Below, in pieces: positions 1 to 53,842 of a stretch of DNA of 64,000 nt. Location: assembly GCA_002269645.1 (NCBI GenBank), contig NIVC01000352.1, forward strand, positions 496,001 through 560,000, written 5' to 3'. Every line of letters begins with the position of its first letter. Within the stretch, counting starts at the first letter, position 1. Source of the DNA: Macrostomum lignano (Eukaryota). The position numbers and the translations under genes are program-made. Below the pieces are notes generated by a model. The model was not told where the DNA came from, did not search any database, and saw nothing but the letters and a program-made list of their open reading frames with translations.

Positions 1-28254
<28,254 letters not shown>

Positions 28255-29845: not shown

Positions 29846-30421
29846 ATCAGTGGGATAGACCGTGGAATCAGTGGGATAGACTGTGGAATCAGTGGGATAG
29901 ACTGTGGAATCAGTGGGATAGACTGTGGAATCAGTGGGATAGACTGTGGAATCAGTGGGATAGACTGTGGAATCAGTGGGATAGACCATGCAATCAGTGG
30001 GATAGACCATGGAATCAGTGGGATAGACTGTGGAATCAGTGGGATAGACTGTGGAATCAGTGGGATAGACTGTGGAATCAGTGGGATAGACCGTGGAATC
30101 AGTGGGATAGACTGTGGAATCAGTGGGATAGACTGTGGAATCAGTGGGATAGACTGTGGAATCAGTGGGATAGACTGTGGAATCAGTGGGATAGACTGTG
30201 GAATCAGTGGGATAGACTGTGGAATCAGTGGGATAGACCATGCAATCAGTGGGATAGACCATGGAATCAGTGGGATAGACTGTGGAATCAGTGGGATAGA
30301 CTGTGGAATCAGTGGGATAGACTGTGGAATCAGTGGGATAGACCATGGAATCAGTGGGATAGACTGTGGAATCAGTGGGATAGACTGTGGAATCAGTGGG
30401 ATAGACCATGGAATCAGTGGT
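29846..30421 (+). repeat. 21-bp minisatellite (GGAATCAGTGGGATAGACTGT), ~27 copies
   Basis: Period 21, in the inferred SMG6 5'-UTR intron. Confidence 0.95.
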
Positions 30422-30492
30422 TTTGATAAACGCGCAGTCTGTTTGCATTAATTAAGCTGATCCGCCCTTCCAGTCAGCCACCAAGAGTGTCA

Positions 30493-33400
30493 ATGGAAGG
30501 CACTGGCAGCAGGCAGCAGCGACATCCAGATCAGCAGATCTATCGACCGCCGCCAATCAGTCGCAGCGACCGTGTTGGTAGCGGCAGCGGCGGCGGCGGC
30601 GGCGGCGGCGGTGGAGGCAGAGGAGGCGGCGGAGGAGGCAGTGGCAGGACGGAAGGCGCCGCCGCAAGTGCGGCAGATGCGGACGCTGTCGGCAAGGCTG
30701 CCGCGCTGTCAGCTGGTGGCGGGCGCACTTTTTATAACAAAAGCCGTCGCAAGGGCGGGCACAGCGCTGGCCAGTCTCAGCAGCAGCAGCAGCAACAGCA
30801 ACAACCGCCGCAACAGAAAAAGCAGCAGAAACAGCCCAATCCTCAAGCGCAGCAACAACCGAAGCAGCAGCAGCAGCAACAGGCAGTAAAAAAGCAGCCA
30901 TCGCCGCAAGATCCGCAGCTTCAGGCTGGCAATACTGCTGGCGAAGGCGGGGGCGGAGGCAGGGGCGGAAGCGGGGGCGGAGGTCGGAGAAGAAACCGGC
31001 GCAGCGGAAATAAGCTGCAAAAGCAGCAACAGCAACAGCCGCATCAGAAGAAGCAGTTTCAAACAGTTGGCGATGCCGATGCGGTTGTCGAATTTTTTGC
31101 CGACGACGAGATGTGGGAACCGCAGGAGGCTGACCAGCATCCGCCACTGCCTCATCAGCCGCCGCCTCCGCCTCCGCCTCCGCTGCCGCAGCCGCAGCCC
31201 AGTTACAATTACCGGCCCAGGGGCGGAGGCGCCGGCGGCGGTTCAGGCAGGCGGGAGAAGCGCTGCTCCGAGTCCTCGCGCGGCGGCGGCGGTCGCGGCG
31301 GCTTCTCGGACAGCTTCTCCGAGGCCGAGTTCGACCGGGGTGAGGTGCTCCGACCGGACGCTCGTCTGTACGACCCGGCCAAGGATCCCGTGGTTGCCCT
31401 GCCGTCGCCTCGCATGCCTCAGCAGCAGCAGCAGCCGCCGCAGTCTGTGTTGAATCCAGGCCAGGACCCGATGGGCCCGCAGCATCTTCATCAACAGCCG
31501 GATGCGGAATCCGGTGCCGGTGGTCAGCTTCAACAGCAGCAGCAGCAGCCGCACACTGGCGGTCTCATTCGTTTGCCCGAGACTCTGCGGCGCGACGCCA
31601 TGCACCGAGGGCCCAAAGATGGGCGCCAGGTGAGTTAATGCTTGTACTATAGGAAAATAGTACATCTATTCAAGTTAAATTTGCTTAAAAACATTTTGAT
31701 CATTATCACCTTCTTTAAAGAAAATATAATTTGTCCATTCTTAAGTACCTAGTGGGATCAGGATTCGAACCCCCGACCTTTCGGTCGTGAGTCCGATTCT
31801 CTAACCACTAGGCTACAACCCCACAATGCCCTCACAAATCCTAAGCACAATGTAGTTGAGGATGTTGAGCACGAAAGTTAATCAGTTATAACATCGAATT
31901 ACAGAAAGTGCGTTTGTTGGATGTGCGGAAAATGTTCCACCATAGGGAACATATCTCCAACTCTCATCGATCTAGTAATAACTGATTTTTCATTGCCTCA
32001 ACAGTGATTTAGCTGTGTAAAATATCAACCATAAGCGTTAAATGAGACTTAATTAACCTGACCTGAAGAATTATAAAATTTTCAACTATGCCTTAATCAA
32101 CAAGCAACAATTAAAATGTTTTACTGACACAAACAACATGCAATGCTTGCCATAAATACAAGATCCGAAAATGTTCGGAGCTCTCAGATGCTCGGACACG
32201 AATCCGGTTTTTACTACCGCATGTTACTACGTCTGAAGAGTTTAAGAGTGGTGATCAGTCACTCAAAAACTCCCACTTCTAGACACGGGGGAACAAGTGC
32301 CTAGGTATTTATCAGTTCAAATAACTTACTTCAGCGGATCCTCTTGGGGTCGGCAGCCGGTGGAGTTCTGTGGCGCGTCGGGATAGCAAGCTTGCTGAGC
32401 GGTTACGGCGACCGGTTCCGGTGAACCACTGTTTTTCTTTGGTGTCCTTAACTTTATCTGTGGGTCGACCAAACGAGAGCGAATCAGAACTTCTTAACGG
32501 TCCTCGAGCTCGGAATTCACAATAGAACGTGCGCCCTAATGAACAATTGAATTCTCTAATTTTCTGTGATAGGTCCTCCTGAAGGGCGGCTTCTTCGTTA
32601 CGTCCGAAACGTAACGGATAACTCAATTAAATCAATAAATCCTCTAGGAATATCCTAGGAAACAAGGAGGCCTTTCTCAAATGTATCGACAATGAACTGC
32701 TCTCGTATACTCAATCAATCACTTTATTAGCGCTATTAACAATTAACTAAATCGGGTAAACGCTTACCAATTGGACAGGGATGGTCCCTCAGAGATTGGT
32801 CTTCTTATTTCTTCGGTGTCTTCTTAGAGACCGCTCCGAGTCTGAATTTTGACTTGAATTTTCACTTATATTTATAGCAAAATTTTGGAAAAAAACCGGT
32901 TTGGGATTGGGTATTTACTTAGGTCAAAAATGTTTGATTAAGCGGTCATGCATGTTTGAGCATTACCATATATGGAGTTAAACAAATACAGCTGTTGAAA
33001 TCCGGTTCCTTGATCAAACAATGTAGGGTTCTAAATCATTCTGTTTGCGCGTGATTCCTAAAATAGATATGACTCATTTTGAAAGAAATTGACTTCCTTA
33101 GAATATTACTTTAAGTAGAGCATTACGGTATGGTCTAATAACTCTCTACAATATCTCCCCTTTTCACAAAAATTCGTCCCGAATTTTAAAGTTAAAGCGG
33201 TGAAGTGGGGTTTTATCTTCTAATAAACATGAAAATGTATTTAAGGATTAGAAATTTTGAACCAGTAGTAGTATAGTAGATGGATAGGTAGATAGGTAGG
33301 TCACATTGTTATTGTGTTGCTTGGCAGGATGCATTGTTATTGTTAATAGGAAAGCGTATTATTCAGTATATCGTTTACTTTGGTTGTCAATCTCGCGAGT

Positions 33401-36400
33401 GGCCACAGTAAGTGCTGTATCGGCGTAAATTGTGTTGATTCGGTGGCGTTGAGGAATTCCAGGTAGATCTCTTCAGTTGTACTCGTAGTATTTATTGGAT
33501 GCGCCGCATATTGACGTACCAAGTCAAAAAGATATTCCAAATGGTCTCTCTTGTTGAATGGTATTGGCCATGTTCGTATAGCTGTTGCTAGTTCCTTGGC
33601 CGTCATACTGTCCATGGTCTCCTTTGTAAGTTGGATCTTTGGTAATGTTGTTGTTCCGGCGTAAATTTCCTTAGATATTGGCGCTGCACAAGTTATGCAA
33701 TGCTTATAGTCGCGGCACCGAATTTTTAGAGCACAATCTCGGCAGACCCAGTGTCCGTTGGCGCACATCCTTTGTTGCGGTGTTGTATTGCATACCTGGC
33801 ACAGGGTAGGTGGTGCGCGGCATAGCGGGCATTTGTCTATTCTATCCGTTGTGCAGCAGTTATAGCAGAACTTATGCCCATGCTGACAGTAGACATACTG
33901 TTCAGTGTCTTCATAACAAACAATGCACTCGTCGCTATCCATGTCTGAAAATGGTCAATGTGATAAGTAATATCTGTGCAAGAATGGTTGCAATATCTGT
34001 GGGTGCATGGTATTTTAATCAATTTCTGAAGCGGAACTATTATAGTCATATGATTCTTGGGGTGGTAATATATAAGACAAGTCCTCATTACGCAGAATGA
34101 GTGCAGGTAGAGCTGTACAGAGGATGGGGCATGGGTGAAAATTCATATCGTTAACAATTTTAAACAGCTTATGTTCAATTTCTTGTGGAGATAATTGCCG
34201 GAGTCTAGAACCGTAGGAAGAGGAATAGCGAACGAGGTATTTACGTGTTTTATGAGCAGCACGTGGTATGGGCCATGATCTGAGGCGGATAATTATAGCA
34301 TGTGATGGAAAAAGAGCATAAGTGAATGGGTGAAGCTGTAGGTTGTAGTCCGCTTGAATGCATGCAAGTTTGTTGTTAACTTTAGGTAAAGGGGTGGCAT
34401 CGCATATAGGACACTGACAAATGGAGCGATAAGCAAGCTTCTTAATACATTGTGTGCACATAAAATGTTGATTTAAGCAATATTGTTCAGTGCGCCAGGA
34501 GTTGCATAACATGCATTGACGGAGATTACCTCGACACATAGGGCAATTTTTTAAAGGTTTTTTGTAATATGCAAGGCTTAAGCAAGAACCACACACCTGG
34601 TGTCTATTGACACATATACAAGGTAGTTTACATGAAAATTCTCCGAGACAGATAGGACAATCCATTGTCGTGTTTGTCGTAGTTGTGTGAGCGTTTGTAG
34701 GAAAACAAGGATTTAGTCGCCTCTTACGACAAGCTTGAGGAAGCTGTAGTGCTATTCTTTATCCCGGTCACTACACGGGGACATGAAGCGAATAATTTAA
34801 CGAGGTCTTAGGTTGTACGTATGACCGACAGGTGGTGCGTTTGTTGTTTGTGTTTCGGCGTGTGCAGTGGCAATGTGTTTATTTGTTGTTTTTGTGTGGT
34901 CTGGATTTTGTAGGTCTGGGAGGAATGTAGTGTCGTTAGTGATACGTTTTAGACGTTGAATGTGAACATAGAACTGAGGTTGATGTGGATCCTGGATATT
35001 AGCGAGGCGTGCTGATACTAGAGAAGGCTTAGGTAGGTCTCGCTTATGTCGTTCTATGACATCTTTTCTCTGATAGGTTCCATTTACTACCTTCAGGAAA
35101 ACATTCTTATCCATATCCTTAAGCGCGATTGGTATTTCTTGGTCGGAGAGGATTAGTTGCTCGTCCTTGTTTTTACATTTCAAGTGTGTGTAGCTTGGTT
35201 GCTTTGGAAATGTAAGAGCCAAATCTCCTGAGTCGGCAAGGAAGGTGTTAGATAGCAGTTTCCCTTGAACAGTGTGATATTTTTGCAGCTTGCAGTCAAT
35301 TTCAGTTTTTACTTCCCATGCAGTGAAATATTTGCGGGTTCGGCTGGGCTCCTCATATCGGGAATCCGATCTATATTCAATTTGGTATCGATAGTCATGG
35401 AAATAAATCGGTGCTAGGGGTAAATTTTGAGCTTCTTCTTTGTTGTAGTTAGGGGTAGAACAATATCCAGAGCTGTAGTGACACTGGTCGAGTGGTAGCT
35501 GTAAGGATTCCATGTTGTCAAATGGATTGTGGTAGAATAAAACATTTCGGATGAGGTAGCTATTGTAGACTGAGTATGTAGGCCATCGTGATTGATGATA
35601 ATGGACATATCTTCCATCGGCTACATTTTTTGTGCGAAATAGCTGTGCTCCGCTGGCGGACGTCTCATGAAGTTTTAATTGACCATCTTCGGAAAACAGA
35701 GTTTGATTCCACCGAAGGCATTCTTCTTGTGATACCATCATCGAAGTTTGCCAATACCTGATTCGGTTCCATTGTACCAGCCAAACCTTTTCAATTTCAT
35801 CCTTGTCTCGGAAGCACACAATTCCCATTTGTCGATGCTTCTTTGTATTTGCTTTGTATATTTCAATAGTTAGTGGTAGTGGCTTGGTTTGGTTTGTCTT
35901 AAAGTAACTGCATTTGATTTCCGTAGGAATCTTGTAAATGACTGGCTGGATGTCTCCATCAGTGGGACAGATCATTGGAGATGGAGACGGCAGTACCGTG
36001 GGAACAATTGCCATCATCAAGATCGTGAGGAAGCATTGCAGTAGCGGATGTTTTTTCTTTCGTCTTGTTGGTACTGGTGGAGTGTCTTCAATCTCGTCAT
36101 GACTATCTTCAGGATACGGCGGAGGAGTAAGGCGAGTCGAAAAGTGCCATTTGTTAGAACATGGTAATGGTGTGGGTGGCTGCGATTGCAACATCGGACG
36201 CATAAAGTTGGTTGATTTTGATATATTGGTAAGATGTGTAGTTGTATTCTCATCAGTTGGAGTGTTAACCGGTTCCATTATTGTTATCGGTTCATCATAT
36301 TCGCTTTCATAGTCTAGGTTCATTGAAACATATGTGTCATCCTCCGTCTGTACGAACTTTTCATCTGTCGAATGGTTAGATTGTGTGTTCGTGGCCTTGT

Positions 36401-39400
36401 CATGTTTCCATTTTTCGTGGACTGGACTAGGGGAGACAATATTTTCATAGTCTGGTTCCTGTGTTGGAGGTGTTTCTGACAGGTCTATATCGTCGACTAG
36501 GACCTGCAACATGTCAACGCTTTCTTCAAAGATGTTTTGAGAAGTTGCTGGATCTCTGTCTTCTTCAAGTGTTGTCATTTCTTTACGATCCTGGAAATTG
36601 TCATCTCGGTGAGTTTCCGAAAGATTGTCGATCGTCGGAACTTTAAATAGATTGCTTTGTTGCTTAGAAATAGTTTGTTGTTGTCTTTTGTTTTCTCGGA
36701 AGACTGGACTTGCTTTAGAAGAGGTAGGAATGGGTGGATCTTCTTCAAACAGAGAATCCATCATGCAGCTACTTTCGCTGCTTGTGCTATCTTTTCGTTT
36801 TTCAAACTCCTCAAGGACATTGATTGTGAAATCCGGCATAAGATCCTCTATCTTAAACTCTGGTTCGATGACTTGAGTGTATTCCGGTTCAATAGCTTGA
36901 GCATATTGTCTGCGGACCTGAGTAGGCTGTCTTGGAGGAGGAGGATTTCTTTGTTGTCGATAAGGTACCAAGGCATTTCCTTGTCTATTCTGTGGTGGGT
37001 TCCAATTGCGATTTTGAGGACGAGTCCAATTTTTTCTTCTGTTGTCATTATATTGTCTTGGATTGCCACGTGATCGGCAGTCTCTGGCGTAATGACCAAT
37101 TCTTCCACAGGTGTAACAAGTGGGTGGCGGAGCGTATCTCTGTCGCTGTGGCATGATTGCAGAAGTTTGGTACTGCTGCATGAGTTTGCTCAATTGTTCT
37201 CCCAATTGTGTCGTATCACTACTACGAGAAGTCAGGAGTGGGGCACTTGCTTCCCATTGCATGCCGCAACGAATTAATTGTTCCTCTGTCTCAATGGTTT
37301 CTCTTAACAACCTGTCTCGCAGCGAAGGTTGAGCATTATTAATGACATGGAGGATTAGGCTTTGTTCTTGGTCAGCAAGGCGTTGTCTTTCTCGTGCAGC
37401 TAGTTCTGCTGGTCCGATAGGCTGAGCTCCTGGGTTCGGTGGTGGTGGCTGGTGCAACGCTTTAATAATTTTGCGGACGTCATCGACGAAAGTAAGGAAG
37501 GATTCCGTCGGACTCATTTTTCGATTATGAAGTTTGTGTAGAAGCACAGATCGATTGGTTCCACATCTGGCGAATTGTGCTCTCAGTTGTGTAACTAAAG
37601 TATGATAGTCTTGCTGTGCGGCGGCATTTAGTTTGCCATAAATTTCTCGAGCAGTACCTTCTAACAGTGGAGGAAGAAGAAGTGCCTTTTCTGGATTTTG
37701 TAGTCCGTATTCGCGAGTTACAAGGTCGAAGTGTTCAATGAAGGTGTTAAAATCTTTATCCATGGTATACATTCCAACAGTTTCCTTGACATCGCGATGC
37801 ACTGTAGGGTTTCTTCGAGCCATATTTTCAAATGGGAACGGCAAGAGGACCAGATCTGGATCAATTTCCAAAGGATTTTCCAGATTGGACTTTCAAAGTG
37901 GCGAACAAGTGTTGTGTGTGTGTGCAAGCTCTTATTTACTTAAAGGAAGAAAGAAAAATGGACACGGGGGCAAAAAAAATTCTGTGTTGCCTTTACCAAA
38001 GAAAGAAATTGAGATAGGATATTCGCAAATTTAACAAAAGTATAAAAAGGTGCACGAAGAATCAAAGGGTCTCTATGCAAACAATGGCGGTTCGGTAAAA
38101 AGTTCAGAAAAATTTGCGCAAAGGACTTGTGTCAAAGTACTTTCAGCGATCTAGCCTGGTAGCGCTTGAGCCTGGGCGAGATCACCAGTTGAAGAGTTTA
38201 AGAGTGGTGATCAGTCACTCAAAAACTCCCACTTCTAGACACGGGGGAACAAGTGCCTAGGTATTTATCAGTTCAAATAACTTACTTCAGCGGATCCTCT
38301 TGGGGTCGGCAGCCGGTGGAGTTCTGTGGCGCGTCGGGATAGCAAGCTTGCTGAGCGGTTACGGCGACCGGTTCCGGTGAACCACTGTTTTTCTTTGGTG
38401 TCCTTAACTTTATCTGTGGGTCGACCAAACGAGAGCGAATCAGAACTTCTTAACGGTCCTCGAGCTCGGAATTCACAATAGAACGTGCGCCCTAATGAAC
38501 AATTGAATTCTCTAATTTTCTGTGATAGGTCCTCCTGAAGGGCGGCTTCTTCGTTACGTCCGAAACGTAACGGATAACTCAATTAAATCAATAAATCCTC
38601 TAGGAATATCCTAGGAAACAAGGAGGCCTTTCTCAAATGTATCGACAATGAACTGCTCTCGTATACTCAATCAATCACTTTATTAGCGCTATTAACAATT
38701 AACTAAATCGGGTAAACGCTTACCAATTGGACAGGGATGGTCCCTCAGAGATTGGTCTTCTTATTTCTTCGGTGTCTTCTTAGAGACCGCTCCGAGTCTG
38801 AATTTTGACTTGAATTTTCACTTATATTTATAGCAAAATTTTGGAAAAAAACCGGTTTGGGATTGGGTATTTACTTAGGTCAAAAATGTTTGATTAAGCG
38901 GTCATGCATGTTTGAGCATTACCATATATGGAGTTAAACAAATACAGCTGTTGAAATCCGGTTCCTTGATCAAACAATGTAGGGTTCTAAATCATTCTGT
39001 TTGCGCGTGATTCCTAAAATAGATATGACTCATTTTGAAAGAAATTGACTTCCTTAGAATATTACTTTAAGTAGAGCATTACGGTATGGTCTAATAACTC
39101 TCTACACGTCCTCGAGCATGTTACCACAACAATCGCTTGCTATAAAGTCTGAGTCTGCATACCATTGTGCCACAATGAAGGTTAACGAATAATATTAACA
39201 TTGTAAGATGGCCATGTGTGACTTCAAAGGCGTCCTCCATCACATACACTTGCACCAAGATCAACTACGCAATCCGAAGATCGGCATAGTAGGAAAAATC
39301 TTCGGAGTTGTAATTGAACAAAACTATGCAGATCTCGCCAGTATAGTCCGGATCAAAAACACCTCCACCGATAAAGATGCCGCGTAGAGCTAGACTAGTT

Positions 39401-41812
39401 CGAATGCTTCGGGATTCGTAGGCTGGTATGATGCCCTCTGTAGCCGAAGATAAATCATACCCAATTGATCCGACAGTTTGACAGGTTGGAATCATCGCCA
39501 AACCAAGCACAAGCTCGACCAAAGTTTTCGATCAAATGTCGTAGACTGCTCTGTCTCTGACTAATCGGTAGATGTTGCACTTGATCCATGTCACCAATTC
39601 TTGTAGCTGAAAGTGATTTAAAAAAGTAAAAGTTTCTCCTAGAACATGAACGTCAGCAACTACATCATCTACGTCTACAAACACAAGTTTTTTTGCATTT
39701 TGAGAAAGAATACCAATATAGCTATAAAACTTACACTCTCAAAAATTGAACACAAAAAGGTACTAAAATTACATACAATTTAAATGAATGTACACCAAAT
39801 GTATGAATGAAATCGACAAGAAAAATCATCCTACTAGCATTACACACCATAAAAAATAAGTAAATAGGTTGCTTTATACAAGAGAGAGAGAGCATTTTTG
39901 CATAGTATTGTTAATCATCCAAACGCCAATGTAAAAAGGCAACGAATCTGTTGGAGTTGTCCAGGAACGCTTATTATAAAAAAAGCTCATACAAAAGCTC
40001 ATCAAAAATACTTTCTGCTTTCGAGAACGAATGCACTGCATGCGCGAAAACACAAGTTGTCGCTGGTTTAGAACTCTAAAATAAAATCAAGTAAATAAAA
40101 CTGCTTGCACCCTTGTCTTGTTAATCGGATTGGACCGGATCGGAAACACCGGAGACTAGTTTGCACCCTTGTCTTGTTAATCGGATTGGACCGGATCGGA
40201 CACACCGGAGACTAGTTTGCACCCTTGTCTTGTTAATCGGATTGGACCGGATCGGACACACCGGAGACTAGTTTGCACCCTTGTCTTGTTAATCGGATTG
40301 GACCGGATCGGACACACCGGAGACTAGTTTGCACCCTTGTCTTGTTAATCAGATTGGACCGGATCGGACACACCGGAGACTAGTTTGCACCCTTGTCTTG
40401 TTAATCGGATTGGACCGGATCGGACACACCGGAGACTAGTTTGCACCCTTGTCTTGTTAATCGGATTGGACCGGATCGGACACACCGGAGACTAGTTTGC
40501 ACCCTTGTCTTGTTAATCGGATTGGACCGGATCGGACACCGGAGACTAGTTTGCACCCTTGTCTTGTTAATCGGATTGGACCGGATCGGACACACCGGAG
40601 ACTAGTTTGCACCCTTGTCTTGTTAATCGGATTGGACCGGATCGGACACACCGGAGACTAGTTTGCACCCTTGTCTTGTTAATCAGATTGGACCGGATCG
40701 GACACACCGGAGACTAGTTTGCACCCTTGTCTTGTTAATCGGATTGGACCGGATCGGACACACCGGAGACTAGTTTGCACCCTTGTCTTGTTAATCGGAT
40801 TGGACCGGATCGGACACACCGGAGACTATTTTGCACCCTTGTCTTGTTAATCGGATTGGACCGGATCGGACACACCGGAGACTAGTTTGCACCCTTGTCT
40901 TGTTAATCGGATTGGACCGGATCGGACACACCGGAGACTAGTTTGCACCCTTGTCTTGTTAATCGGATTGGACCGGATCGGACACACCGGAGACTAGTTT
41001 GCACCCTTGTCTTGTTAATCGGATTGGACCGGATCGGACACACCGGAGACTAGTTTGCACCCTTGTCTTGTTAATCGGATTGGACCGGATCGGAAACACC
41101 GGAGACTAGTTTGCACCCTTGTCTTGTTAATCGGATTGGACCGGATCGGACACACCGGAGACTAGTTTGCACCCTTGTCTTGTTAATCGGATTGGACCGG
41201 ATCGGACACACCGGAGACTAGTTTGCACCCTTGTCTTGTTAATCGGATTGGACCGGATCGGACACACCGGAGACTAGTTTGCACCCTTGTCTTGTTAATC
41301 GGATTGGACCGGATCGGACACACCGGAGACTAGTTTGCACCCTTGTCTTGTTAATCGGATTGGACCGGATCGGACACACCGGAGACTAGTTTGCACCCTT
41401 GTCTTGTTAATCGGATTGGACCGGATCGGATTCGATACTTGGATACTTGGACATTTCAATGCTTGGATGTTAAATTACGCAATTTTGTTTTAAAAGAGCT
41501 GCCAAAATATTTGTAAACTGGCTAATTTTATTAACTTGTGTAAAAATCGTGTTTGTATCGAATTGAAATATAATACTGCTTTAAAAGAAGTTAATTTGAA
41601 TGCGTAAAGTTATACGCAAATATCAGGTTTATATGTCTGAAGTGGTGTGTCTAATTAAGCCACTATTCATTTCGTAAAACTAAGTCTGCGTGCACATGGA
41701 ATTTCAGACTTTGCCATTTTTCTGGGCCTGTACTTGCTATGTATTTCACCATAAGGAAATCGGGTTGTGTCATATTTTCCTATACTAATTATGCTGACTA
41801 AAGTTCTTTTCG

Positions 41813-41861
<49 letters not shown>

Positions 41862-44800
41862 GTCTGTCTGTCTGTCATTGCTATCGGCCACCCCTTCCGC
41901 ACACGCCCAGGTCCCCATAGTGGTAGTGCGGCCACAGTCGCATCACGCGCAGCCGCAGCCGGCCATGCAGTCAGAGGAGTCCCAAGCCGCAGCCGAGCAC
42001 ATTGAGCAGGTTTGCCAGCTGGACTCCGAGCTGGATAGGCTGGTCCAGCAGTGGGCTCCCAGCATGGACCCGCAGGTGTGGTGGGGCCTGGTCCAACGCC
42101 CCCGGCTCGACCTGCTGCACAGGTGCGCCGACGCCCTGCGGGCAGGTGCCGGCTGGCAGGAATCGAACTCAGGCCCGCAGCCGGCCCTAGACCAGAGAAT
42201 GTGGCGCTCAGGGTTTCACGCAATTGTTGAACAGCTACGCCAGATGTCCGGGCCGGATCAGCCGGAGCGACTGGCCGAGCGTGGCCGGGAACTGGCGCTG
42301 GACATGATCGAGTCTGGCTGGCAATTTCTGCAACAACTTGCTGACCAGTTGGCCGCCGAGCACGAACTGCCGGTTGAGCTGCCGCTCCGCATCGGCTTCC
42401 TGCCGCCTGCGGTGAGGTGCACCCGCTGGCAGCGGCTCGGCCTGCTGCTCATCCAGCGGCTCTACCTCAACATTGGTGATTTGCTCCGCTACAGAGAGGT
42501 CTTCTCCGGTGGCGCCGACTATAGCGAAGCTAGAAGGTGAGCTGGGTGCTCCTGTGAATTATTCTACGAAATAGATGTATTTTAGTTTGAAAGTAAAATC
42601 GTTGAGTTCATTTTTCTAAGATTTCTTTTTCAGTTTTTTGAGTGTTAGTGTAAAAGATTCTTAGAATGAATTATCGTACGAGTGTTTCTAAGCAATGAAT
42701 TGTTATCATGAGAATGTTTCTAAGAAATATCGTCTGGAAATGTTTCTAAGAAATATCGTATGGAAATGTTTCTAAGAAATATCGTATGGAAATGTTTCTA
42801 AGAAATATGGTATGGAAATGTTTCTAAGAAATATCGTCTGGAAATGTTTCTAAGAAATATCGTCTGGAAATGTTTCTAAGAAATATCGAATGGAAATGTT
42901 TCTAAGAAATATGGCATGGAAATGTTTCTAAGAAATATCGAATGGAAATGTTTCTAAGAAATATCGAATGGAAATGTTTCTAAGAAATATGGTATGGAAA
43001 TGTTTCTACAAAATATTTATTATCGTAGGAATGTTTTTAAAAAGTATTAAAAAATCTTAGAAATGTTTCTAAGCCAATTTTGTGAGTGTCCCTTGGCAAC
43101 ACTCAGGTGAATGATTCAAGGTAATCCCATATACTAATCCCATATACTAAGAATTGATTCTAGAAATGATTATTTCTCTTCCCTCTTCAACCCTCTTCAA
43201 CTTACCCAGCTGGTACTTGAAGGCTGTGGCGCTGGAGCCCAAGAATGGTCGGACCTACCATCAGCTGGCTGTGCTGGCTAATGCAACAGTGAGTTTTCTT
43301 TAATTCATTGACTCTTTTTGAGTTCCAATTAGATGACTTTCCATGAGATCAATCAATCCGACTTTGAATCTTCTTTATGTTAAGAATTTTCATCCGCTAA
43401 TCAATAATCGCTTCGCTTGAAAGAGTAGCGGAACTGCCCTGTCCCTGAGAGGAATTAAGTTTTCATCTTAAGAATTTTCATGCCTGAACTATCACCTCAC
43501 CTGAAAAATCGCCCCACCTGAAGCACCGCCCTACCTGAAGAACTCCCTCCCCTACCTGAAGAATCGCCCACCTGAAGAACCACCCCTACCTGAAGAGCCG
43601 CCCCACCTGAAGAACCGCTCCACCTGAAGAACTGCCCCACCTAAAGAACCGCCCCACCTGAAGAACCGCCCCACCTGAAGAACCGCCCCAACTGAAGCAC
43701 CGCCTCATCTGAAGCACCGCCCTACCTAAAGAACTCCCTCCCCTACCCGAAGAACCGCCCCACCTGAAGAACCGCTCCACCTGAAGCACCACCCCACCTG
43801 AAGAACCGCCCCACCTGAAGAACCGCCCCACCTGAAGCACCGCCCCACCTGAAGAACCGCCCCACCTGAAGAACCGCCCCACCTGAAGAACCGCCCCACC
43901 TGAAGAACCGCCCCTACCTGAAGAACCGCCCCACCTGAAGAACCGCCCCACCTGAAGCACCGCCCCACCTGAAGAACCGCCCCACCTGAAGCACCGCCCC
44001 ACCTGAAGCACCGCCCCACCTGAAGCACCGCCCCACCTGAAGAACCGCCCCACCTGAAGCACCGCCCCACCTGAAGCACCGCCCCACCTGAAGAACCCCC
44101 GCCGCCGCCCCGGCAGAAGCGCCGGCTAGACGCGGTGTACTACTACATGCGGTCGCTGGCCGCCAGCCACCCGGTGGACCTGTCCCGCCAGTACCTGGCC
44201 CAGCTATTTGAAGAGGCCAGACGCCGCGCCGAGGCGGCCTGGCGGCAGAGAGAAGCGGAGCGCAGCAAGCGTCAGCGGGCGAAGAACGCCGGCTCTTCCG
44301 GGCCGTCGCTCAGCAGCGGCGGCCTCCGGGCGCTTCAACAGCCGAACCGGCGCTGCCGCGTCGAAGTCTGGGTGCCGGTGTCCGGCGCCGGCCGCCAGCT
44401 CAGCTCCGGCCTGCTCAACTCTGACGAAGAGGACGTCGAACAAGAGGAGGACCTGGACCAGCTGTCCTTCATTGAGATCAACACGGCATTCACGGCCAGC
44501 TACCTGCACTGCCACGGCAAGCTGTTCACCCGCATCGGCATGGAGAGCTTCCAGGAGGCCTGCTCGCAGACTCTGCTTGAGCTGGCAGCCTGGCTGCGCC
44601 ACGAGCCGCCGGCTGAGCGGCTACTTCAACTGGCGGCCGGCTGCGTGTTCTCCGCCAGCTGGGCCGCCCGCCAGGGACCGCCAGGAGCGGCCCAGTACAG
44701 ATCTGTGCAGTTGGAGAGCGCCGTTCGGCTGGCGCTGGACTTTGCCGCCGTGCTGGCTAGGCACTGCCGGCACCTGCTGGCTGTGAGTTTGCACCGGGTT

Positions 44801-47604
44801 CACGGCCTGTCACACAGCCTGTCACACAGATTACTCCAATCTATTACACAGCCTGTCACACAGATTACTGCAATCTATCACACAGCCTTCACACAGATTA
44901 CTGCAATCTATCACACAGCCTTCACACAGATTACTCCAATCTATCACACAGCCTGTCACACAGATTACTCCAATCTATCACACAGCCTGTCACACAGATT
45001 ACTCCAATCTATCACACAGCCTGTCACACAGATTACTCCAATCTATCACACAGCCTGTCACACAGATTACTGCAATCTATCACACAGCCTGTCACACGGA
45101 TTACTGCAATCTATCACACAGCCTGTCACACAGATTACTGCAATCTATTACACAGCCTGTCACACAGATTACTGCAATCTATCACACAGCCTGTCACACG
45201 CCCTGTCACACAGCCCGTCACACGGCATGCCTGGCGGACATTCTAATTAAGCCAATAATTCAGCAAATTAGAATCGAATCGGACTGGCATCGCAGCCCAA
45301 TCAGGATACTATGAGTAGGCATCTATGCGCGCATCTGTTGTTAAATACGTTACCCACCGCCGCCCTTCCCCCAACCGGCAGGAACACGTCAAGAACGGCG
45401 GCTGCCTTCCCCTGCCGGAGCCCACCCGGGCGCTCCTGTCCTCGCTGAAGCTGCTGCTAGACTGGATGGAGGTGTCCCCGGAGGCGTGGAACCCGCCGCC
45501 CTTGCAGCGTGACCCGCACCTGCAGCCTCAGCTGGACGTCTGGGAGGACCTGGCCAGCCTGTTCACCGACTGCGCTCGATTCTCCAACCGGCCGGAGGTT
45601 CGCCGCCAGCTGTTGGACTTTGAGGAGTCCAAGAAGCCGCCGATCTCGCCGCCGGGCAGCTGCCGGCTGCACGTGATCCTTCAGGAGGACGTCTTCGCCA
45701 ACGGCTTCACCCCCATGCTCAACCGGACCCCGATTTTCTACGTCGCCAAGCAGGCGCCGGCGGAGCTGTCGGCGGTGACGGACGCGCCCGAAGCCTGGTC
45801 GGTGCGCGAACGCCTGCTGGAGGACTCGATCAGGCTGGACGCCTGCGCCGTGTTCGCCGACTATCTGTGCGGCCTGGAGCCGCCCCTGCTCGGCTACAGC
45901 ATGGAGGCCGGCGGTGCCTACTTCAGCCAGCAGCTCGACAAGCTGGCCTCCGAGCGGATGGAAGATTGCCAACAGCCGCAGCCGCAACCGCCGTCGCTGG
46001 AGTTTGCGGAGGCCGGCATCCAGGATGAGCCGGATGAATCCGGTGCCGCTTCGGCCGACGACGAGCTGGCCGCGTCGGCGGCTGCTGACGGCATTCGGGA
46101 GCTGCGTCTGCGCAAGCAGGAACTGCGACGGGCCCTGGACGAGCAGCAGGAGCGCCAGCGGGCTTATAAGGTAATTGGACTGTCTGTCACGTGATTTGCC
46201 ATCTGGCTAGACACTGTCACGTGATCATTTGTGTTAGTAATCGTCACGTGGCCAGTCTCAGTAGCCGTCACGTGACAGTCTCAGTAGCCGTCACGTGACC
46301 AGTCTCAGTAGCCGTCACGTGACTAGTCTTAATAGCCGTCACGTGACCAGTCTCAGTAGCCGTCACGTGACTAGTCTTAATAGCCGTCACGTGACAAGTC
46401 TCAGTAGCCGTCACGTGACTCTCAGTAATCGTCACGTGACCAGTCTCAGTAGCCGTCACGTGACCAGTCTCAGTAGCCGTCACGTGACCAGTCTCAGTAA
46501 TCGTCACGTGACCAGTCTCAGTAGATGTCACGTGACTTGTCACCCCCTCAAATCAACCCCGCCTCCCCCCGCCTTCAGTCCGCCCTGGAGTCGTCCGGCC
46601 AGCGCTACATGGAGCTGGAGATTGTGCCGATCAACCTGCTGCCGGACACCAATTGCTACATTCACTACCTGGGCGAGATACGCAGCCTACTAGCCATGGG
46701 CAAGCACAATCTGATTCTGCCAATTGTAGTGCTCAACGAATTGGATCACCTGGCTAAGCACGGCGACTCGAGCGAGCACGCTGGCTACGTTGCCAGCCAG
46801 GCTCGAGCCGCGGTTGCCATGCTGGAGGAGGCATTCGAGTCCAAGGCAGGCGGAGCAGCCAGGCGCCGGGTCAAAGCGGTCACGGCCAAGGGCAGCACGT
46901 TGGACACCATCGCTTTCCGGTCCGAGGTGATCGGCCGGCCGGCTAAGAACGACGACCTCATTCTGTCCTGCTGCATGAACCACTGCCAGGACAAGGCTAG
47001 CGCCTTTATGCCTAAGGATAAGGGTGAGTGCGTCCCGTCTGCTGAAGGCTGACCGTCACGTGTCACGGACCTGGGGTTCCAGTCGGCTGGGAGATGAAGG
47101 GTTGGATGAGGCTGGGAGATGGAGGGTTGGATGAGGCTGAGAGATGAAGGTTTGAATGAGGCTGGGAGATGGAGGGTTGGATGAGGCTGGGAGATGGAGG
47201 GTTGGATGAGGCTGAGAGATGAAGGTTTGAATGAGGCTGGGAGATGGAGGGTTGGATGAGACTGAGATAAAAGAGTTGGATGAGGCTGGAAGATAAATGT
47301 TTGGATGAGGCTGGGAGATGAAGGGTTGGATGAAGCTGGGAGATGAAGACTTGGATGAGCCTAGGAGATACAGGCTTTGATGAGGCTGGGAGATAAAGGG
47401 CCTCCAGACGAATGCAGCAAGCTTATATAAATAGTATTAGCCCACCTACTCGTGCCCACAGACCAGCCCGTCAGGCTGCACAGGGACATTGTGCTGCTGA
47501 CCAGCGACAGGAACCTCCGGCTGAAGGCCATCGGGTCGAACATTCCCGCAAAGACAGTGCCGGCCTTCTTCAAGTGGTCCGGCCTGCCCATGTGCCGGAA
47601 TTGA
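30493..47604 (+). CDS. SMG6: SMG6/EST1A nonsense-mediated decay endonuclease, 1294 aa
   Basis: Exons 30493-31629, 41911-42536, 43210-43288, 44117-44782, 45382-46170, 46579-47023 and 47462-47604 join in frame (3885 nt). TPR/EST1 region: GDLLRYRE..YSEARSWYLKA..PKNGRTYHQLAVLA..KRRLDAVYYYMRSLAASHP. PIN domain: LPDTN, NELD, KNDDLILSCC, VLLTSDRNLRLKA. N-terminal EBM-like PDQQIYRP. Confidence 0.95.
31751..31822 (-). mobile_element. tRNA-like sequence, probably a SINE head or tRNA pseudogene
   Basis: The minus strand reads GGGGTTGTAGCCTAGTGGTTAGAGAATCGGACTCACGACCGAAAGGTCGGGGGTTCGAATCCTGATCCCAC. A and B boxes are intact and the anticodon loop is CTCACGA, but the acceptor and T stems pair poorly. Confidence 0.6.
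32234..33150 (-). repeat. 3' LTR (917 bp)
   Basis: Direct repeat of 38190-39106. On the minus strand: TATAAATA at 32869-32876 and AATAAA at 32723-32728. Confidence 0.95.
33151..33165 (-). other. Polypurine tract GAAAAGGGGAGATAT
   Basis: Purine-rich run directly abutting the 3' LTR on the minus strand. Confidence 0.88.
33343..33942 (-). CDS. Cargo ORF B: tandem double C3HC4 (SIAH-like) RING protein, 199 aa
   Basis: CIVC-x9-C-QHG-H-KF-C-YN-C-x8-CPLC followed by CQVC-x8-C-ANG-H-WV-C-RD-C-x11-CITC. Intact ATG-to-stop ORF. Confidence 0.85.
   Translation of the reverse strand: MDSDECIVCYEDTEQYVYCQHGHKFCYNCCTTDRIDKCPLCRAPPTLCQVCNTTPQQRMCANGHWVCRDCALKIRCRDYKHCITCAAPISKEIYAGTTTLPKIQLTKETMDSMTAKELATAIRTWPIPFNKRDHLEYLFDLVRQYAAHPINTTSTTEEIYLEFLNATESTQFTPIQHLLWPLARLTTKVNDILNNTLSY
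34015..34665 (-). CDS. Cargo ORF A: tandem double C3HC4 (SIAH-like) RING protein, 216 aa
   Basis: CPIC-x11-C-VNR-H-QV-C-GS-C-x12-CPMC followed by CMLC-x8-C-LNQ-H-FM-C-TQ-C-x11-CPIC. Intact ORF. Confidence 0.85.
   Translation of the reverse strand: MDCPICLGEFSCKLPCICVNRHQVCGSCLSLAYYKKPLKNCPMCRGNLRQCMLCNSWRTEQYCLNQHFMCTQCIKKLAYRSICQCPICDATPLPKVNNKLACIQADYNLQLHPFTYALFPSHAIIIRLRSWPIPRAAHKTRKYLVRYSSSYGSRLRQLSPQEIEHKLFKIVNDMNFHPCPILCTALPALILRNEDLSYILPPQESYDYNSSASEID
34797..37823 (-). CDS. Gag (capsid-like + CCHC knuckle) fused to an Env-like ectodomain fragment, ~1008 aa from the first ATG
   Basis: N-terminal retrotransposon-gag-like helices (FNTFIEHFDLV..EKALLLPPLLEGTAREIY). CYTCGRIGHYARDC at 37077-37118. 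Acidic/disordered linker. Hydrophobic signal-like LLQCFLTILMMAIVPTVLP (~35988-36044). Cys-containing glycoprotein-like region with N-x-T sequons. Furin-like RHKR at 35040-35051. C-terminal VHIQRLK and HTYNLRPR. Confidence 0.82.
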   Translation of the reverse strand: MARRNPTVHRDVKETVGMYTMDKDFNTFIEHFDLVTREYGLQNPEKALLLPPLLEGTAREIYGKLNAAAQQDYHTLVTQLRAQFARCGTNRSVLLHKLHNRKMSPTESFLTFVDDVRKIIKALHQPPPPNPGAQPIGPAELAARERQRLADQEQSLILHVINNAQPSLRDRLLRETIETEEQLIRCGMQWEASAPLLTSRSSDTTQLGEQLSKLMQQYQTSAIMPQRQRYAPPPTCYTCGRIGHYARDCRSRGNPRQYNDNRRKNWTRPQNRNWNPPQNRQGNALVPYRQQRNPPPPRQPTQVRRQYAQAIEPEYTQVIEPEFKIEDLMPDFTINVLEEFEKRKDSTSSESSCMMDSLFEEDPPIPTSSKASPVFRENKRQQQTISKQQSNLFKVPTIDNLSETHRDDNFQDRKEMTTLEEDRDPATSQNIFEESVDMLQVLVDDIDLSETPPTQEPDYENIVSPSPVHEKWKHDKATNTQSNHSTDEKFVQTEDDTYVSMNLDYESEYDEPITIMEPVNTPTDENTTTHLTNISKSTNFMRPMLQSQPPTPLPCSNKWHFSTRLTPPPYPEDSHDEIEDTPPVPTRRKKKHPLLQCFLTILMMAIVPTVLPSPSPMICPTDGDIQPVIYKIPTEIKCSYFKTNQTKPLPLTIEIYKANTKKHRQMGIVCFRDKDEIEKVWLVQWNRIRYWQTSMMVSQEECLRWNQTLFSEDGQLKLHETSASGAQLFRTKNVADGRYVHYHQSRWPTYSVYNSYLIRNVLFYHNPFDNMESLQLPLDQCHYSSGYCSTPNYNKEEAQNLPLAPIYFHDYRYQIEYRSDSRYEEPSRTRKYFTAWEVKTEIDCKLQKYHTVQGKLLSNTFLADSGDLALTFPKQPSYTHLKCKNKDEQLILSDQEIPIALKDMDKNVFLKVVNGTYQRKDVIERHKRDLPKPSLVSARLANIQDPHQPQFYVHIQRLKRITNDTTFLPDLQNPDHTKTTNKHIATAHAETQTTNAPPVGHTYNLRPR
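38170..38187 (-). other. Primer-binding site TGGTGATCTCGCCCAGGC
   Basis: Begins 2 nt after the 5' LTR and is complementary to a tRNA 3' end ...CCTGGGCGAGATCA-CCA. Confidence 0.85.
38190..39106 (-). repeat. 5' LTR (917 bp)
   Basis: Direct repeat of 32234-33150; no mismatches noticed by eye. TATA at 38825-38832 on the minus strand. Confidence 0.95.
39247..39522 (-). pseudogene. Decayed trimeric dUTPase
   Basis: AMIPT..GSIGYDLSSA (motif 1), GGGVFDPDYTGEICIVLFN (motif 3), RIA*LIL (motif 4, with Gln replaced by TAG at 39265-39267). The motif 2 (RSG) region is deleted. Confidence 0.8.
40105..41430 (+). repeat. 56-bp satellite (TTGCACCCTTGTCTTGTTAATCGGATTGGACCGGATCGGACACACCGGAGACTAGT), ~23 copies
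   Basis: Highly homogeneous period of 56, in the same SMG6 intron as the LTR element. Confidence 0.96.
41814..41875 (+). repeat. (TGTC)n microsatellite
   Basis: Tetramer run just upstream of SMG6 acceptor 41910. Confidence 0.9.
42712..43010 (+). repeat. 26-bp minisatellite (GAAATGTTTCTAAGAAATATCGTATG), ~11 copies
   Basis: Tandem repetition in an SMG6 intron. Confidence 0.9.
43490..44098 (+). repeat. ~17-bp C-rich minisatellite (CACCTGAAGAACCGCCC)
   Basis: Tandem repetition in an SMG6 intron. Confidence 0.92.
44805..45215 (+). repeat. 34-bp minisatellite (TCACACAGCCTGTCACACAGATTACTGCAATCTA), ~12 copies
   Basis: Period 34. Confidence 0.92.
46186..46536 (+). repeat. ~24-bp minisatellite, each unit containing GTCACGTG(AC)
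   Basis: About 15 CACGTG E-box cores, most as the palindrome GTCACGTGAC. Confidence 0.92.
47092..47396 (+). repeat. 25-bp minisatellite (GGATGAGGCTGGGAGATGGAGGGTT), ~12 copies
   Basis: Tandem repetition in the last SMG6 intron. Confidence 0.9.
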
Positions 47605-47871: not shown

Positions 47872-48048
47872 CTGCTTGCGATGTTTATGAAGCATTCGTT
47901 TCGCGATTCCTGCACTGTCTTCAATTCCTACGAGTAATTTAATAAATGCTCTGGTCCTTTTGCTCTTGCTGCCTTCCTTACTTCATTGGCCGCCTTCTAG
48001 AAGCAGCACCATTGACCTTTGTTTTGCTTTTAATGTAGACCGATATTT

Positions 48049-50056
48049 ACGCTACATATCGGCAATCCACCAATCCTGGTACATAAGAATTAGATAACTA
48101 CGCTACATATCGGCAATCCACCAATCCTGGTACATAAGAATTAGATAACTACGCTACATATCGGCAATCCACTAATCCTGGTACATAAGAATTAGATAAC
48201 TACGCTACATATCGGCAATCCACCAATCCTGGTACATAAGAATTAGATAACTACGCTACATATCGGCAATCCACTAATCCTGGTACATAAGAATTAGATA
48301 ACTACGCTACATATCGGCAATCCACCAATCCTGGTACATACGAATTAGATAGCTACGCTACATATCGGCAATCCACCAATCCTGGTACATAAGAATTAGA
48401 TAACTACGCTACATATCGGCAATCCACCAATCCTGGTACATACGAATTAGATAGCTACGCTACATATCGGCAATCCACCAATCCTGGTACATAAGAATTA
48501 GATAACTACGCTACATATCGGCAATCCACTAATCCTGGTACATAAGAATTAGATAACTACGCTACATATCGGCAATCCACCAATCCTGGTACATAAGAAT
48601 TAGATAACTACGCTACATATCGGCAATCCACCAATCCTGGTACATACGAATTAGATAGCTACGCTACATATCGGCAATCCACCAATCCTGGTACATAAGA
48701 ATTAGATAACTACGCTACATATCGGCAATCCACCAATCCTGGTACATAAGAATTAGATAACTACGCTACATATCGGCAATCCACCAATCCTGGTACATAC
48801 GAATTAGATAGCTACGCTACATATCGGCAATCCACCAATCCTGGTACATAAGAATTAGATAACTACGCTACATATCGGCAATCCACCAATCCTGGTACAT
48901 AAGAATTAGATAACTACGCTACATATCGGCAATCCACCAATCCTGGTACATACGAATTAGATAGCTACGCTACATATCGGCAATCCACCAATCCTGGTAC
49001 ATAAGAATTAGATAACTACGCTACATATCGGCAATCCACTAATCCTGGTACATAAGAATTAGATAACTACGCTACATATCGGCAATCCACCAATCCTGGT
49101 ACATAAGAATTAGATAACTACGCTACATATCGGCAATCCACCAATCCTGGTACATACGAATTAGATAGCTACGCTACATATCGGCAATCCACCAATCCTG
49201 GTACATAAGAATTAGATAACTACGCTACATATCGGCAATCCACCAATCCTGGTACATAAGAATTAGATAACTACGCTACATATCGGCAATCCACCAATCC
49301 TGGTACATACGAATTAGATAGCTACGCTACATATCGGCAATCCACCAATCCTGGTACATAAGAATTAGATAACTACGCTACATATCGGCAATCCACCAAT
49401 CCTGGTACATAAGAATTAGATAACTACGCTACATATCGGCAATCCACCAATCCTGGTACATAAGAATTAGATAACTACGCTACATATCGGCAATCCACCA
49501 ATCCTGGTACATACGAATTAGATAGCTACGCTACATATCGGCAATCCACCAATCCTGGTACATAAGAATTAGATAACTACGCTACATATCGGCAATCCAC
49601 TAATCCTGGTACATAAGAATTAGATAACTACGCTACATATCGGCAATCCACCAATCCTGGTACATAAGAATTAGATAACTACGCTACATATCGGCAATCC
49701 ACTAATCCTGGTACATAAGAATTAGATAACTACGCTACATATCGGCAATCCACCAATCCTGGTACATAAGAATTAGATAACTACGCTACATATCGGCAAT
49801 CCACCAATCCTGGTACATACGAATTAGATAGCTACGCTACATATCGGCAATCCACCAATCCTGGTACATAAGAATTAGATAACTACGCTACATATCGGCA
49901 ATCCACCAATCCTGGTACATACGAATTAGATAGCTACGCTACATATCGGCAATCTACCAATCCTGGTACATAAGAATTAGATAACTACGCTACATATCGG
50001 CAATCCACCAATCCTGGTACATAAGAATTAGATAACTACGCTACATATCGGCAATG
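48049..50056 (+). repeat. 51-bp intergenic satellite (ACGCTACATATCGGCAATCCACCAATCCTGGTACATAAGAATTAGATAACT), ~39 copies
   Basis: Period 51, with three recurring variant units. Confidence 0.96.
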
Positions 50057-50804
50057 GACTGAATCTGCTAATGTAGAAAGATATTTTCACTCGTACGAGC
50101 TACCTCTACGCATCGAAAGATGGTCCTTGCTCTGGGTAGTGTAAAATTAGATGACTAGATGTACGCTACATATCGGCAATATCTGTTTATTTTATGTCGT
50201 CGTACATTTACGTGCAAGCAGATAGGTATCTAATTCTTCTACTAAATAGAAGACGGCATGTATCCAGCGCTTCTCTCTTCTATCCCCTTTCCCTGTCCCT
50301 CTGCTCTGCTTTGCTTCTGCCGGATAGCTGCCGCATGAAGCTTGTATCGAGTCTGGAATTCGTTTTGAGCACTCTGTTCGATAACTGCACAACAGCTCTT
50401 CTTTCAACAGCAATTACCCTGACTCATCTTGACGCCACTTGAGCTGAAATCGACCCTACTAGAGCTCGAATTGGCGCTACTAGAACTCGTAGTTGCGCTA
50501 CTAGAACTCGAATTAGCGCTAGAATTAGAGCTAGAACTCAAATCAAATTTAAAAACTCAGAGAATTTGACACCAAAGTATTAAATTGTATTCTTGATGAT
50601 CAGAAAGAATGTCAGGGATAGGGTCAGATTGTCAGACAGATTTTCAGCTAAACTGTGCGGCTTGGCAACAATCGAAGTATTTAATGAACAACATAGAAAA
50701 TTTCAAAAGCAAAGTTTTAAACAAAAATTTTCTGACCATTTTTTCGCCAGCTTTAATCTCAGCCAAATTGTTGTCTTTTTTGTCCTCCTTGTTGTTAACT
50801 CGGC

Positions 50805-53842
<3,038 letters not shown>

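Follow-up and report, generated by a model that had tools for sequence, protein, structure and literature searches.

Introduction

GAG-ENV-POL errantiviruses, long terminal repeat (LTR) retroelements with a gB-type envelope protein (Env), have been described in Platyhelminthes, among them one from Macrostomum lignano, Mlig_errantivirus_2, which is classed as Ty3/gypsy (Chary & Hayashi 2026, PMC13524379). Here we analyse 64,000 nt of M. lignano contig NIVC01000352.1 (assembly GCA_002269645.1, positions 496,001 to 560,000; the window), which holds at 32234-39106(-) a Pol-deleted copy of a GAG-ENV-POL Ty3/gypsy errantivirus. Between its Gag-Env open reading frame (ORF) and its polypurine tract (PPT) lie two further ORFs, RA and RB, each encoding two RING motifs and together called the cassette. 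The RING cassette is what appears to be new here, the backbone type and extra 3' ORFs in LTR elements being already known.

The family shares with Mlig_errantivirus_2 of PMC13524379 the host species, Env placed between Gag and Pol, the gB-type fusogen, the Ty3/gypsy domain order, the 12-nt primer-binding site (PBS) and a recent multicopy expansion; RING, zinc, ubiquitin and accessory go unmentioned in the main text of that paper. The listed span of 10,591 bp with 864-bp LTRs fits a cassette-truncated lineage (~11,674 minus ~1,060 bp), and the cassette may have gone unremarked because the listed copy belongs to that lineage. A modular 3' ORF slot whose captured enzymes are shared or exchanged between lineages is known from bdelloid rotifers (Rodriguez et al. 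2017, PMC5408684), whose extra-ORF LTR retrotransposons carry a GDSL esterase, a DEDDy exonuclease or an Env-like cargo; a term search of that article gives no match for RING, ubiquitin or ligase. Another invertebrate LTR element, Cer1 of C. elegans, likewise encodes a cysteine-containing accessory protein, CERV, which has sequence in common with Gag and a putative C4 loop in place of RINGs, and on which the export of genomic RNA depends (PMC10309623). The viral RING E3 ubiquitin ligases (herpesvirus ICP0, giant-virus and baculovirus RING proteins) are small virus-encoded RING proteins as well, but the likeness is limited to one RING and none matches the RING-RING-helical whole. The retroviral accessory genes Vif and Vpx offer a functional comparison, although these lentiviral factors hijack cullin ligases and own no RING. 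No report of RING cargo in LTR elements was found in the literature outside most subscription journals and Repbase.

The wider question is how LTR elements persist where the PIWI pathway closely guards the stem cells and germline of an animal; to our knowledge, protein-level counter-defence by animal LTR elements has rarely been documented. We propose, and give the proposal an even chance, that RA and RB are trans-acting accessory E3 ligases directed against a factor by which the host restricts or silences the element. If so, isolating what they bind would show which host factors hold such elements in check. With the cassette these errantiviruses resemble complex retroviruses, whose accessory genes are spliced; a protein architecture and a structured RNA, both new, come with it. 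M. lignano is a laboratory model with RNA interference (RNAi) and transgenesis, and the young multicopy family provides natural variants to compare, with cassettes that are full, swapped, truncated or dead.

Protein anatomy of the cassette

An earlier note made from the letters of this DNA (the original prediction) had reported RA and RB as intact double-RING ORFs, and both are present: RA (216 amino acids (aa), 34015..34665(-)) with RING1 at 34531-34659, RING2 at 34402-34515 and a helical domain, and RB (199 aa, 33343..33942(-)) with RING1 at 33817-33927, RING2 at 33688-33801 and its helical domain at 33349-33624. Each protein has two C3HC4 motifs with C-x3-H-x2-C-x2-C spacing, starting at aa 3 and 51 in RA and at aa 6 and 48 in RB. 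Among 100,000 residue shuffles of each protein the RING-like pattern occurred once in one (RA) and two (RB) shuffles and never twice. The homology claimed for the two proteins also holds, with an alignment over 181 aa, including the WPIP motif of the C-terminal region, at 24% identity (E 8e-13). Across 20 diverged ORFs of the family 316/320 zinc ligands are retained.

The linchpin rule for active RING E3 ligases separates the two RINGs. In the 20 diverged ORFs RING1 ends C-P-x-C-R, with Arg after C8 in 20/20, Pro after C7 in 18/20 and V/I at C1+2 in 16/20; RING2 has Arg/Lys at the linchpin position in 0/20 and Pro in 9/20, and its spacing is fixed (x8, x3, x11) in 20/20. Four equivalent E3 RINGs, as the original prediction implied, are therefore not supported. 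Known RING chemistry and this residue conservation suggest that RING1 is the E2-activating unit and RING2 a structural one, and RING1-dependent E3 activity of RA and RB appears probable. A RING1 profile scores a mean of 16 bits on RING2 copies versus 70 on RING1 copies, and the two RINGs have therefore long diverged.

Domain and structure searches, proposed as checks in the original prediction, agree with the RING assignment. RB matches zf-C3HC4_3 above the cut-off (E 7e-8), and its model (predicted local distance difference test (pLDDT) 90.8, predicted template-modelling score (pTM) 0.81) consists of two RINGs followed by an all-helical domain (aa 107-198). RING1 of the model superposes on solved RINGs, several of them E2-bound, at 1.8-2.7 Å (~2 Å over ~45 residues); superposition was done for RING1 only, the assignment of RING2 being based on spacing and Pfam. 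The whole RB model has no match at E<=0.001 in PDB or BFVD. In Atlas and BFVD, viral RING proteins come closest, all of them weak matches (scores <0.9, E>=0.01), and ESM Atlas gave only weak viral RING/SAP clusters with scores under 0.9. For the helical part, ESM Atlas returned nothing and the best Z of 5.8 in the VIA search is not meaningful for helical bundles; PDB, BFVD and VIA assign no known fold, which is not proof of a new one. A profile of this domain matches family members alone.

The likeness to SIAH that had been proposed stands for the RING spacing but not for membership. SIAH/Sina proteins (PF21362, PF21361, PF03145) have in common with the cassette the C-x3-H spacing and the CPxCR end, and Sina_RING matches 18/20 family members at E<=0.05. 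Scores of some paralogs are 30-33 bits, above the cut-off, versus 62-63 for the host SIAH; RB itself reaches 22.1 bits, under the 29.3 cut-off, and RA has no Sina_RING match at E<=1. Sina_ZnF and Sina_TRAF match none of the 20 members, whereas SIAH combines a RING, zinc fingers and a TRAF-like substrate domain where the cassette proteins join a pair of RINGs to a helical domain. SIAH of the host is encoded elsewhere by its own gene (Sina_ZnF E 6e-31, weak partial Sina_TRAF match), and it is not the best match outside the family on the RING1 profile, scoring 33 bits, under several unrelated RING proteins at 45-48. Among the host genes seen in these searches, L118, L121 and L122 (C210 and copies) encode proteins in which a B-box-like motif and a coiled coil come after a Sina-type RING, in an apparent TRIM-like cluster.

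Distribution, age and exchange

Searches with RB and RA gave 139 and 150 matches among the best 150 of 186 and 236 candidates, respectively; the lists overlap, and the counts overstate independent insertions because some contigs duplicate one insertion (L102 and L109 share a flank). At the fetched loci one to three RING ORFs directly follow the pol stop, with the integrase (IN) adjoining in the Pol-bearing copies examined. Where Pol is missing or remote, family LTR-like sequence lies near the RING matches in 15/17 regions. No LTR-like sequence was listed at threshold for L082, L083 and L042, and L090 has Pol instead; L042 has the IN tail, while L082 and L083, still without explanation, hold cassette fragments alone. 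No intron-containing parent gene was found among the part of the matches inspected. The cassette is a family-wide trait, one to three ORFs after pol, and it is old.

A tree of 20 chosen intact ORFs and four outside proteins, with long branches and a midpoint root, splits RA and RB into two clades at 100/99 and places one outside protein within RA and three within RB. It contains at least four RB groups and at least five paralog groups overall. Because both clades hold members from outside the assembly (from short contigs), the RA/RB duplication is old, and the suggested tandem duplication inside this element is not supported. Full-length matches among 1.84 billion representatives comprise one M. 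lignano model and a few short-contig proteins. Searches for loci of relatives found none in viral_contigs with RA and none in metagenome_contigs with the outside protein P0159, and a word-index search gave 0/35 candidates with RB alone and 2/437 with alignment A4.

The copies in C262 and C2129, compared with C717, have 98% identical IN and 97% identical RA, yet an RB ~35% identical to that of the window; cassettes are exchanged between lineages and backbones. This exchange, together with the splice acceptor, the conserved RNA element and the amplified cassette-defective lineages described below, was absent from the original prediction.

Several loci are packed with cassettes of several lineages on the same strand, namely C2121:1-70000, C272:350000-429999, C4009:30000-49999 and C1405:245000-284999, with 29/0, 0/22, 11/0 and 0/11 RING segments per strand. 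They resemble unistrand PIWI-interacting RNA (piRNA) clusters; tandem duplication would also keep the orientation.

Selection

Nei-Gojobori counts were made for 37 pairs, not independent of one another, in five groups of chosen intact ORFs. The ratio of nonsynonymous to synonymous change (dN/dS) is 0.11-0.32 in the 21 estimable pairs, with bootstrap upper bounds <=0.51, and the other 16 are saturated, the proportion of synonymous differences (pS) being at least 0.76 versus 0.25-0.46 for nonsynonymous differences (pN). RA of the window and its nearest diverged relative give a dN/dS of 0.25 (0.14-0.39); pairs with the window RB are all saturated (pS 0.85-0.89, pN 0.25-0.34). In the RINGs and in the helical part alike pN is below pS. 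For the polyprotein comparison pair dN/dS is 0.02 in reverse transcriptase (RT), 0.03 in IN, 0.06 in Gag, 0.10 in Env and 0.43 in the linker. The cassette is under purifying selection, yet changes several times faster than the core.

Selection on the cargo, as the original prediction had it, is borne out by these ratios, but the argument it drew from the loss of Pol is not. The two LTRs of the window copy show 0/917 differences, so that its youth by itself accounts for open RING frames, and the cassette is also carried by relatives that have Pol. The outcome named there as contrary, ordinary host genes recently captured and decaying neutrally, is not seen, and we regard such a history as highly improbable. 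Many copies do have stops, frameshifts or cassette deletions; ratios of this size with saturated dS nevertheless largely refute it already, no cellular parent is found among the matches inspected, the host SIAH has neither RING2 nor the helical domain, the few full-length matches among the 1.84 billion representatives offer no source, and splice acceptors are conserved. RA and RB are, almost certainly, functional element-encoded proteins.

The same comparison bears on a role in the particle or at the membrane, in which the ligases would ubiquitinate Gag, Env or host membrane proteins, with polyprotein turnover, Env trafficking, budding or receptor down-regulation as outcomes. A single polyprotein with internal membrane segments needs unusual sorting, and the RA of one lineage begins, in 8/8 sites examined, with MGNxxS, a start of the myristoylation type (L069, L070, L071, L075, L098, L063, L065), which has an analogue in the Z protein of arenaviruses. 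The MG start is however missing from the window RA and from two other RA lineages, RA and RB evolve far more rapidly than Gag and Env, from which their exchange is independent, and a related GAG-ENV-POL element exists without a RING ORF. We consider this role quite unlikely.

Expression, splicing and a conserved RNA element

Read contigs were compared between three runs guessed as RNA (X1, X3 and X5, from three studies) and the DNA-like run X17; none of the runs listed as holding the sequence is recorded as RNA. Host-exon contigs of X1, X3 and X5 end at the donor 31631 and that of X17 continues; the flank at 31946-32177 has depths of 0, 2.2 and 7.4 in the RNA-like runs versus 66.7 in X17; and a joint 32457-32768, present in X1, X3 and X5 and absent from X17, marks a 310-nt GT-AG intron within LTR sequence (32458..32767(-)), which reads as a CT..AC joint on the forward strand. 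The donor stop, the LTR joint and the low flank depth therefore show the three runs to behave as RNA. A GGTAAGC donor lies ~110-130 nt after the TATA in 4/4 LTR lineages. Expression had been among the checks suggested earlier, and contigs cover both RA and RB in 3/3 RNA-like runs; the cassette is transcribed at the family level. Suppression of polyadenylation by the LTR donor was rejected as a general explanation, the AATAAA being inside the intron in only 1/4 LTR lineages.

A 3' splice acceptor, a pyrimidine tract with CAG at 33945..33960(-), stands 2 nt before the RB ATG, and a contig of X3 matches from exactly 33944, the base after the acceptor AG, preceded by 29 unaligned letters. RB-type ORFs have an AG 0-2 nt before the ATG in 8/11 cases and 41-49 nt before it in the other three; for the window RA the 55 nt next to the ATG are free of AG, and in three other copies of RA an AG occurs at 10-16 nt. 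RB is probably made from a spliced mRNA via the acceptor at its ATG with a leader from the LTR donor, spliced-leader (SL) trans-splicing being the alternative source of the 29-nt leader.

Between the pol stop and RA lies a conserved non-coding RNA element of ~70 nt (34712..34780(-)), with an H-type pseudoknot-like fold, a small hairpin and a GTCG-x7-CGAC hairpin, which is conserved at the DNA level across lineages with ~70% IN identity. In the fold, a CCCG/CGGG stem encloses a loop that pairs with a downstream 6-7-mer, and this second helix occurs in covarying versions (TGTAGTG/CACTACA, TGTAGAG/CTCTACA, TGTGGA/TCCACA) that amount to two or three independent compensatory events, which is suggestive. 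Its minimum free energy fold, in which pseudoknots are not modelled, has a z of -1.6. Rfam over 32200-35200 gave four chance-level matches, none on the RNA element, which lends no support to a ribozyme or riboswitch identity. Stop-codon readthrough into RA was rejected: the spacer differs in length between copies, the window RA is not in the frame of pol, and there are stops in between.

These features bring in a second explanation, namely that RA and/or RB are regulators like Rev or CERV. By binding the RNA element, or some other site, they would help unspliced RNA to be exported, stabilised or translated, and ubiquitination, if any, would serve that end. The element splices, at the LTR intron and the RB acceptor, so its unspliced RNA needs an exit route; the covarying RNA element lies directly before RA; and CERV of Cer1 sets a precedent, being an accessory protein with a cysteine loop without which genomic RNA is not exported (PMC10309623). 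Were the cassette an essential export factor, one slow-evolving gene should be present, whereas here there are five or more swappable paralogs. The RNA element is retained in copies with a dead RA, the RING1 linchpin Arg is present in 20/20 with invariant E2-binding residues, and domain and fold searches found no RNA-binding domain. On balance such a regulatory role seems unlikely.

Cassette-defective lineages

A 20-nt motif upstream of RA has 99 sites (control 0), with an RA-type match within 250 nt downstream at 94/99; the comparison used 103 RA-type matches out of the 150 of the RA search, RB cross-matches and fragments having been dropped. The 99 sites comprise 40 with a near-full RA, 30 with a match ending at aa 95-120, 23 with a shorter one, one intermediate and five with none. 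Match ends assign ~25 of the 30 and ~20 of the 23 to two deletion lineages, and the rest are frameshifted or broken full cassettes. A ~1.1-kb deletion that takes the RA helical domain and all of RB was confirmed in 8/8 sampled copies, and the 3' flanks differ in 9/9 sampled cassette-defective copies, which are thus independent insertions. One deletion lineage keeps RING-RING open, and the other has an RA with altered ligands that is interrupted by a stop; several cassette-deletion copies keep long Pol frames.

Such copies would also suit a host-tolerance cargo, in which the ligases would not act on silencing but would change what becomes of the cell that expresses them (its survival, or its stem-cell or germline cycle). 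Its products would be trans-acting and dispensable in cis, and the many RINGs on which RING1 superposes include IAP-type and other cell-regulatory ones. Pfam scans however found no BIR or other signalling domain, the IAP likeness is a generic RING likeness (E>0.2), and paralog turnover fits conflict better, which makes this reading very unlikely.

Proposed role

Counter-defence by trans-acting E3 ligases accommodates these observations as follows. The cassette is observed in a fixed slot between pol stop and PPT in the family. RB would come from an mRNA spliced at the acceptor beside its ATG, in part directly seen, and translation of RA or processing of its RNA may depend on the structured RNA element upstream. 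RING1 would bind E2~ubiquitin, as expected from its conserved residues and known RING chemistry, RING2 would have no catalytic part and would serve structure or dimer formation, and recruitment of the substrate would fall to the helical domain, which is specific to the family. That substrate, judged from the evolutionary pattern, may be a host restriction or silencing factor that is removed or inactivated where the element is expressed, with the piRNA, RNAi, chromatin and nonsense-mediated decay (NMD) pathways as candidates. A product acting in trans would allow cassette-defective and Pol-defective copies to ride on it.

The reading is supported by a conflict-like pattern: the cassette changes faster than Env and RT, has multiplied into paralogs, undergoes RB swaps, and the slot is refilled in a distant element. 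A restriction or silencing substrate, which is suggested by fast but constrained evolution, paralog turnover, exchange and cheater lineages, could equally be right or wrong.

Several results weigh against this proposal. Pairwise dN/dS is far under 1 throughout. The runs were guessed as RNA, and their contigs show neither level, strand nor translation; splicing at RB was seen in 1/3 RNA-like runs, contigs of X1 and X5 reading through the acceptor. About 25 copies have only RING-RING of RA and no RB, ~20 have a dead RA and no RB, and the cassette-defective lineages outnumber any full-cassette lineage. As these are independent insertions, the cassette is dispensable in cis, which fits trans-complementation and equally a marginal benefit, and caps the importance that can be given to it.

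Joined together, the parts would describe an ancient, lineage-wide counter-defence arsenal: a new E3 architecture, made of a catalytic RING, an inert RING and a helical adaptor of a new kind, would have radiated into interchangeable paralogs, each of them destroying a different part of the machinery with which flatworms silence transposons. A splice acceptor and a new pseudoknot RNA would serve its expression, cheater copies would profit from it, and the host would answer with single-strand loci of cassette fragments. As a whole this picture is tentative and somewhat doubtful.

Backbone and structure of the element

Longer relatives in the genome (G000) have a single long frame in the order Gag, linker, Env, protease (PR), RT, RNase H, IN (3/3 scanned), and their Pol shows the Ty3/gypsy order PR-RT-RNase H-IN in all three. 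Env lies between Gag and Pol in family members. In a Foldseek search with the Env model, which is of low confidence (pLDDT 39.7), all rows shown among 50 matches at E<=0.001 are herpesvirus gB (best E 2.7e-6); Env reaches E 4e-5 to 2e-4 against PF24664, under the cut-off, and its sequence profile has no match in PDB. Hydrophobic segments of the polyprotein stand at aa ~431 and ~1032. Together these features mark Env as a gB-like fusogen of class III that carries signal and transmembrane (TM) segments. A distant GAG-ENV-POL element at L046:1525-2322(+), with 26% identical Env and 99.9% identical LTRs, carries after pol an unrelated 266-aa frame that has no convincing Pfam match.

The original prediction of an LTR element that has lost Pol was correct. 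The 917-bp 5' LTR (TG...CA, 38190..39106(-)) is identical to the 3' LTR (32234..33150(-)), which has a TATAAA at 32876, a donor after 32768 and an AATAAA at 32728; both are flanked by the target-site duplication (TSD) CGTC (39107-39110 and 32230-32233). The PBS TGGTGATCTCGC (38176..38187(-)) is, as reverse complement, the one listed for Mlig_errantivirus_2 in the supplement of PMC13524379, and the PPT is at 33151..33165(-). The 1008-aa ORF (34797..37823(-)) contains Gag with a zinc knuckle, the linker, the signal/TM segment, the N-terminal half of the gB-type Env and the last ~72 aa of Pol. Compared with a longer relative ~4.4 kb is missing in frame, with the junction near 35010; the deletion takes the C-terminal half of Env with the TM anchor, PR, RT, RNase H and most of IN. 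From its identical LTRs and intact TSD the window copy is very young.

Further insertions of the 6.87-kb Pol-less derivative are present in C301, C1192, C2869 and C525, with their own TSDs and LTRs 99.8-100% identical; the derivative has itself been copied in trans. A joint 33382-37041, which skips 3,658 nt in all four runs, the DNA-like one included, is another deletion derivative, without Env, RNA element and cassette.

Insertion site and neighbouring sequence

The element lies antisense in an intron of a (+)-strand gene for an SMG6-like NMD nuclease, with segments at 30430-31631, 41755-42540, 44075-45250 and 46525-47052 (EST1 weak, EST1_DNA_bind E 7e-15, PIN E 7e-14). The exon 30430-31631 probably belongs to this gene, its QIYRPP motif being reminiscent of one that binds the exon junction complex (EJC). 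The choice of an SMG6-like intron as insertion site is probably due to chance. Beside the 5' LTR, ~600 bp at 39110-39700 may hold a short reverse-strand coding remnant, judged by eye. Minisatellite arrays occur at 17283-20400, 29850-30420, 40090-41430, 47940-50200, 52885-53400 and 56835-58000, with unit sizes of 22, 24, 20, 56, 51, 8 and 20/21 nt, and read-contig depth points to a high-copy short repeat at about 31740-31795.

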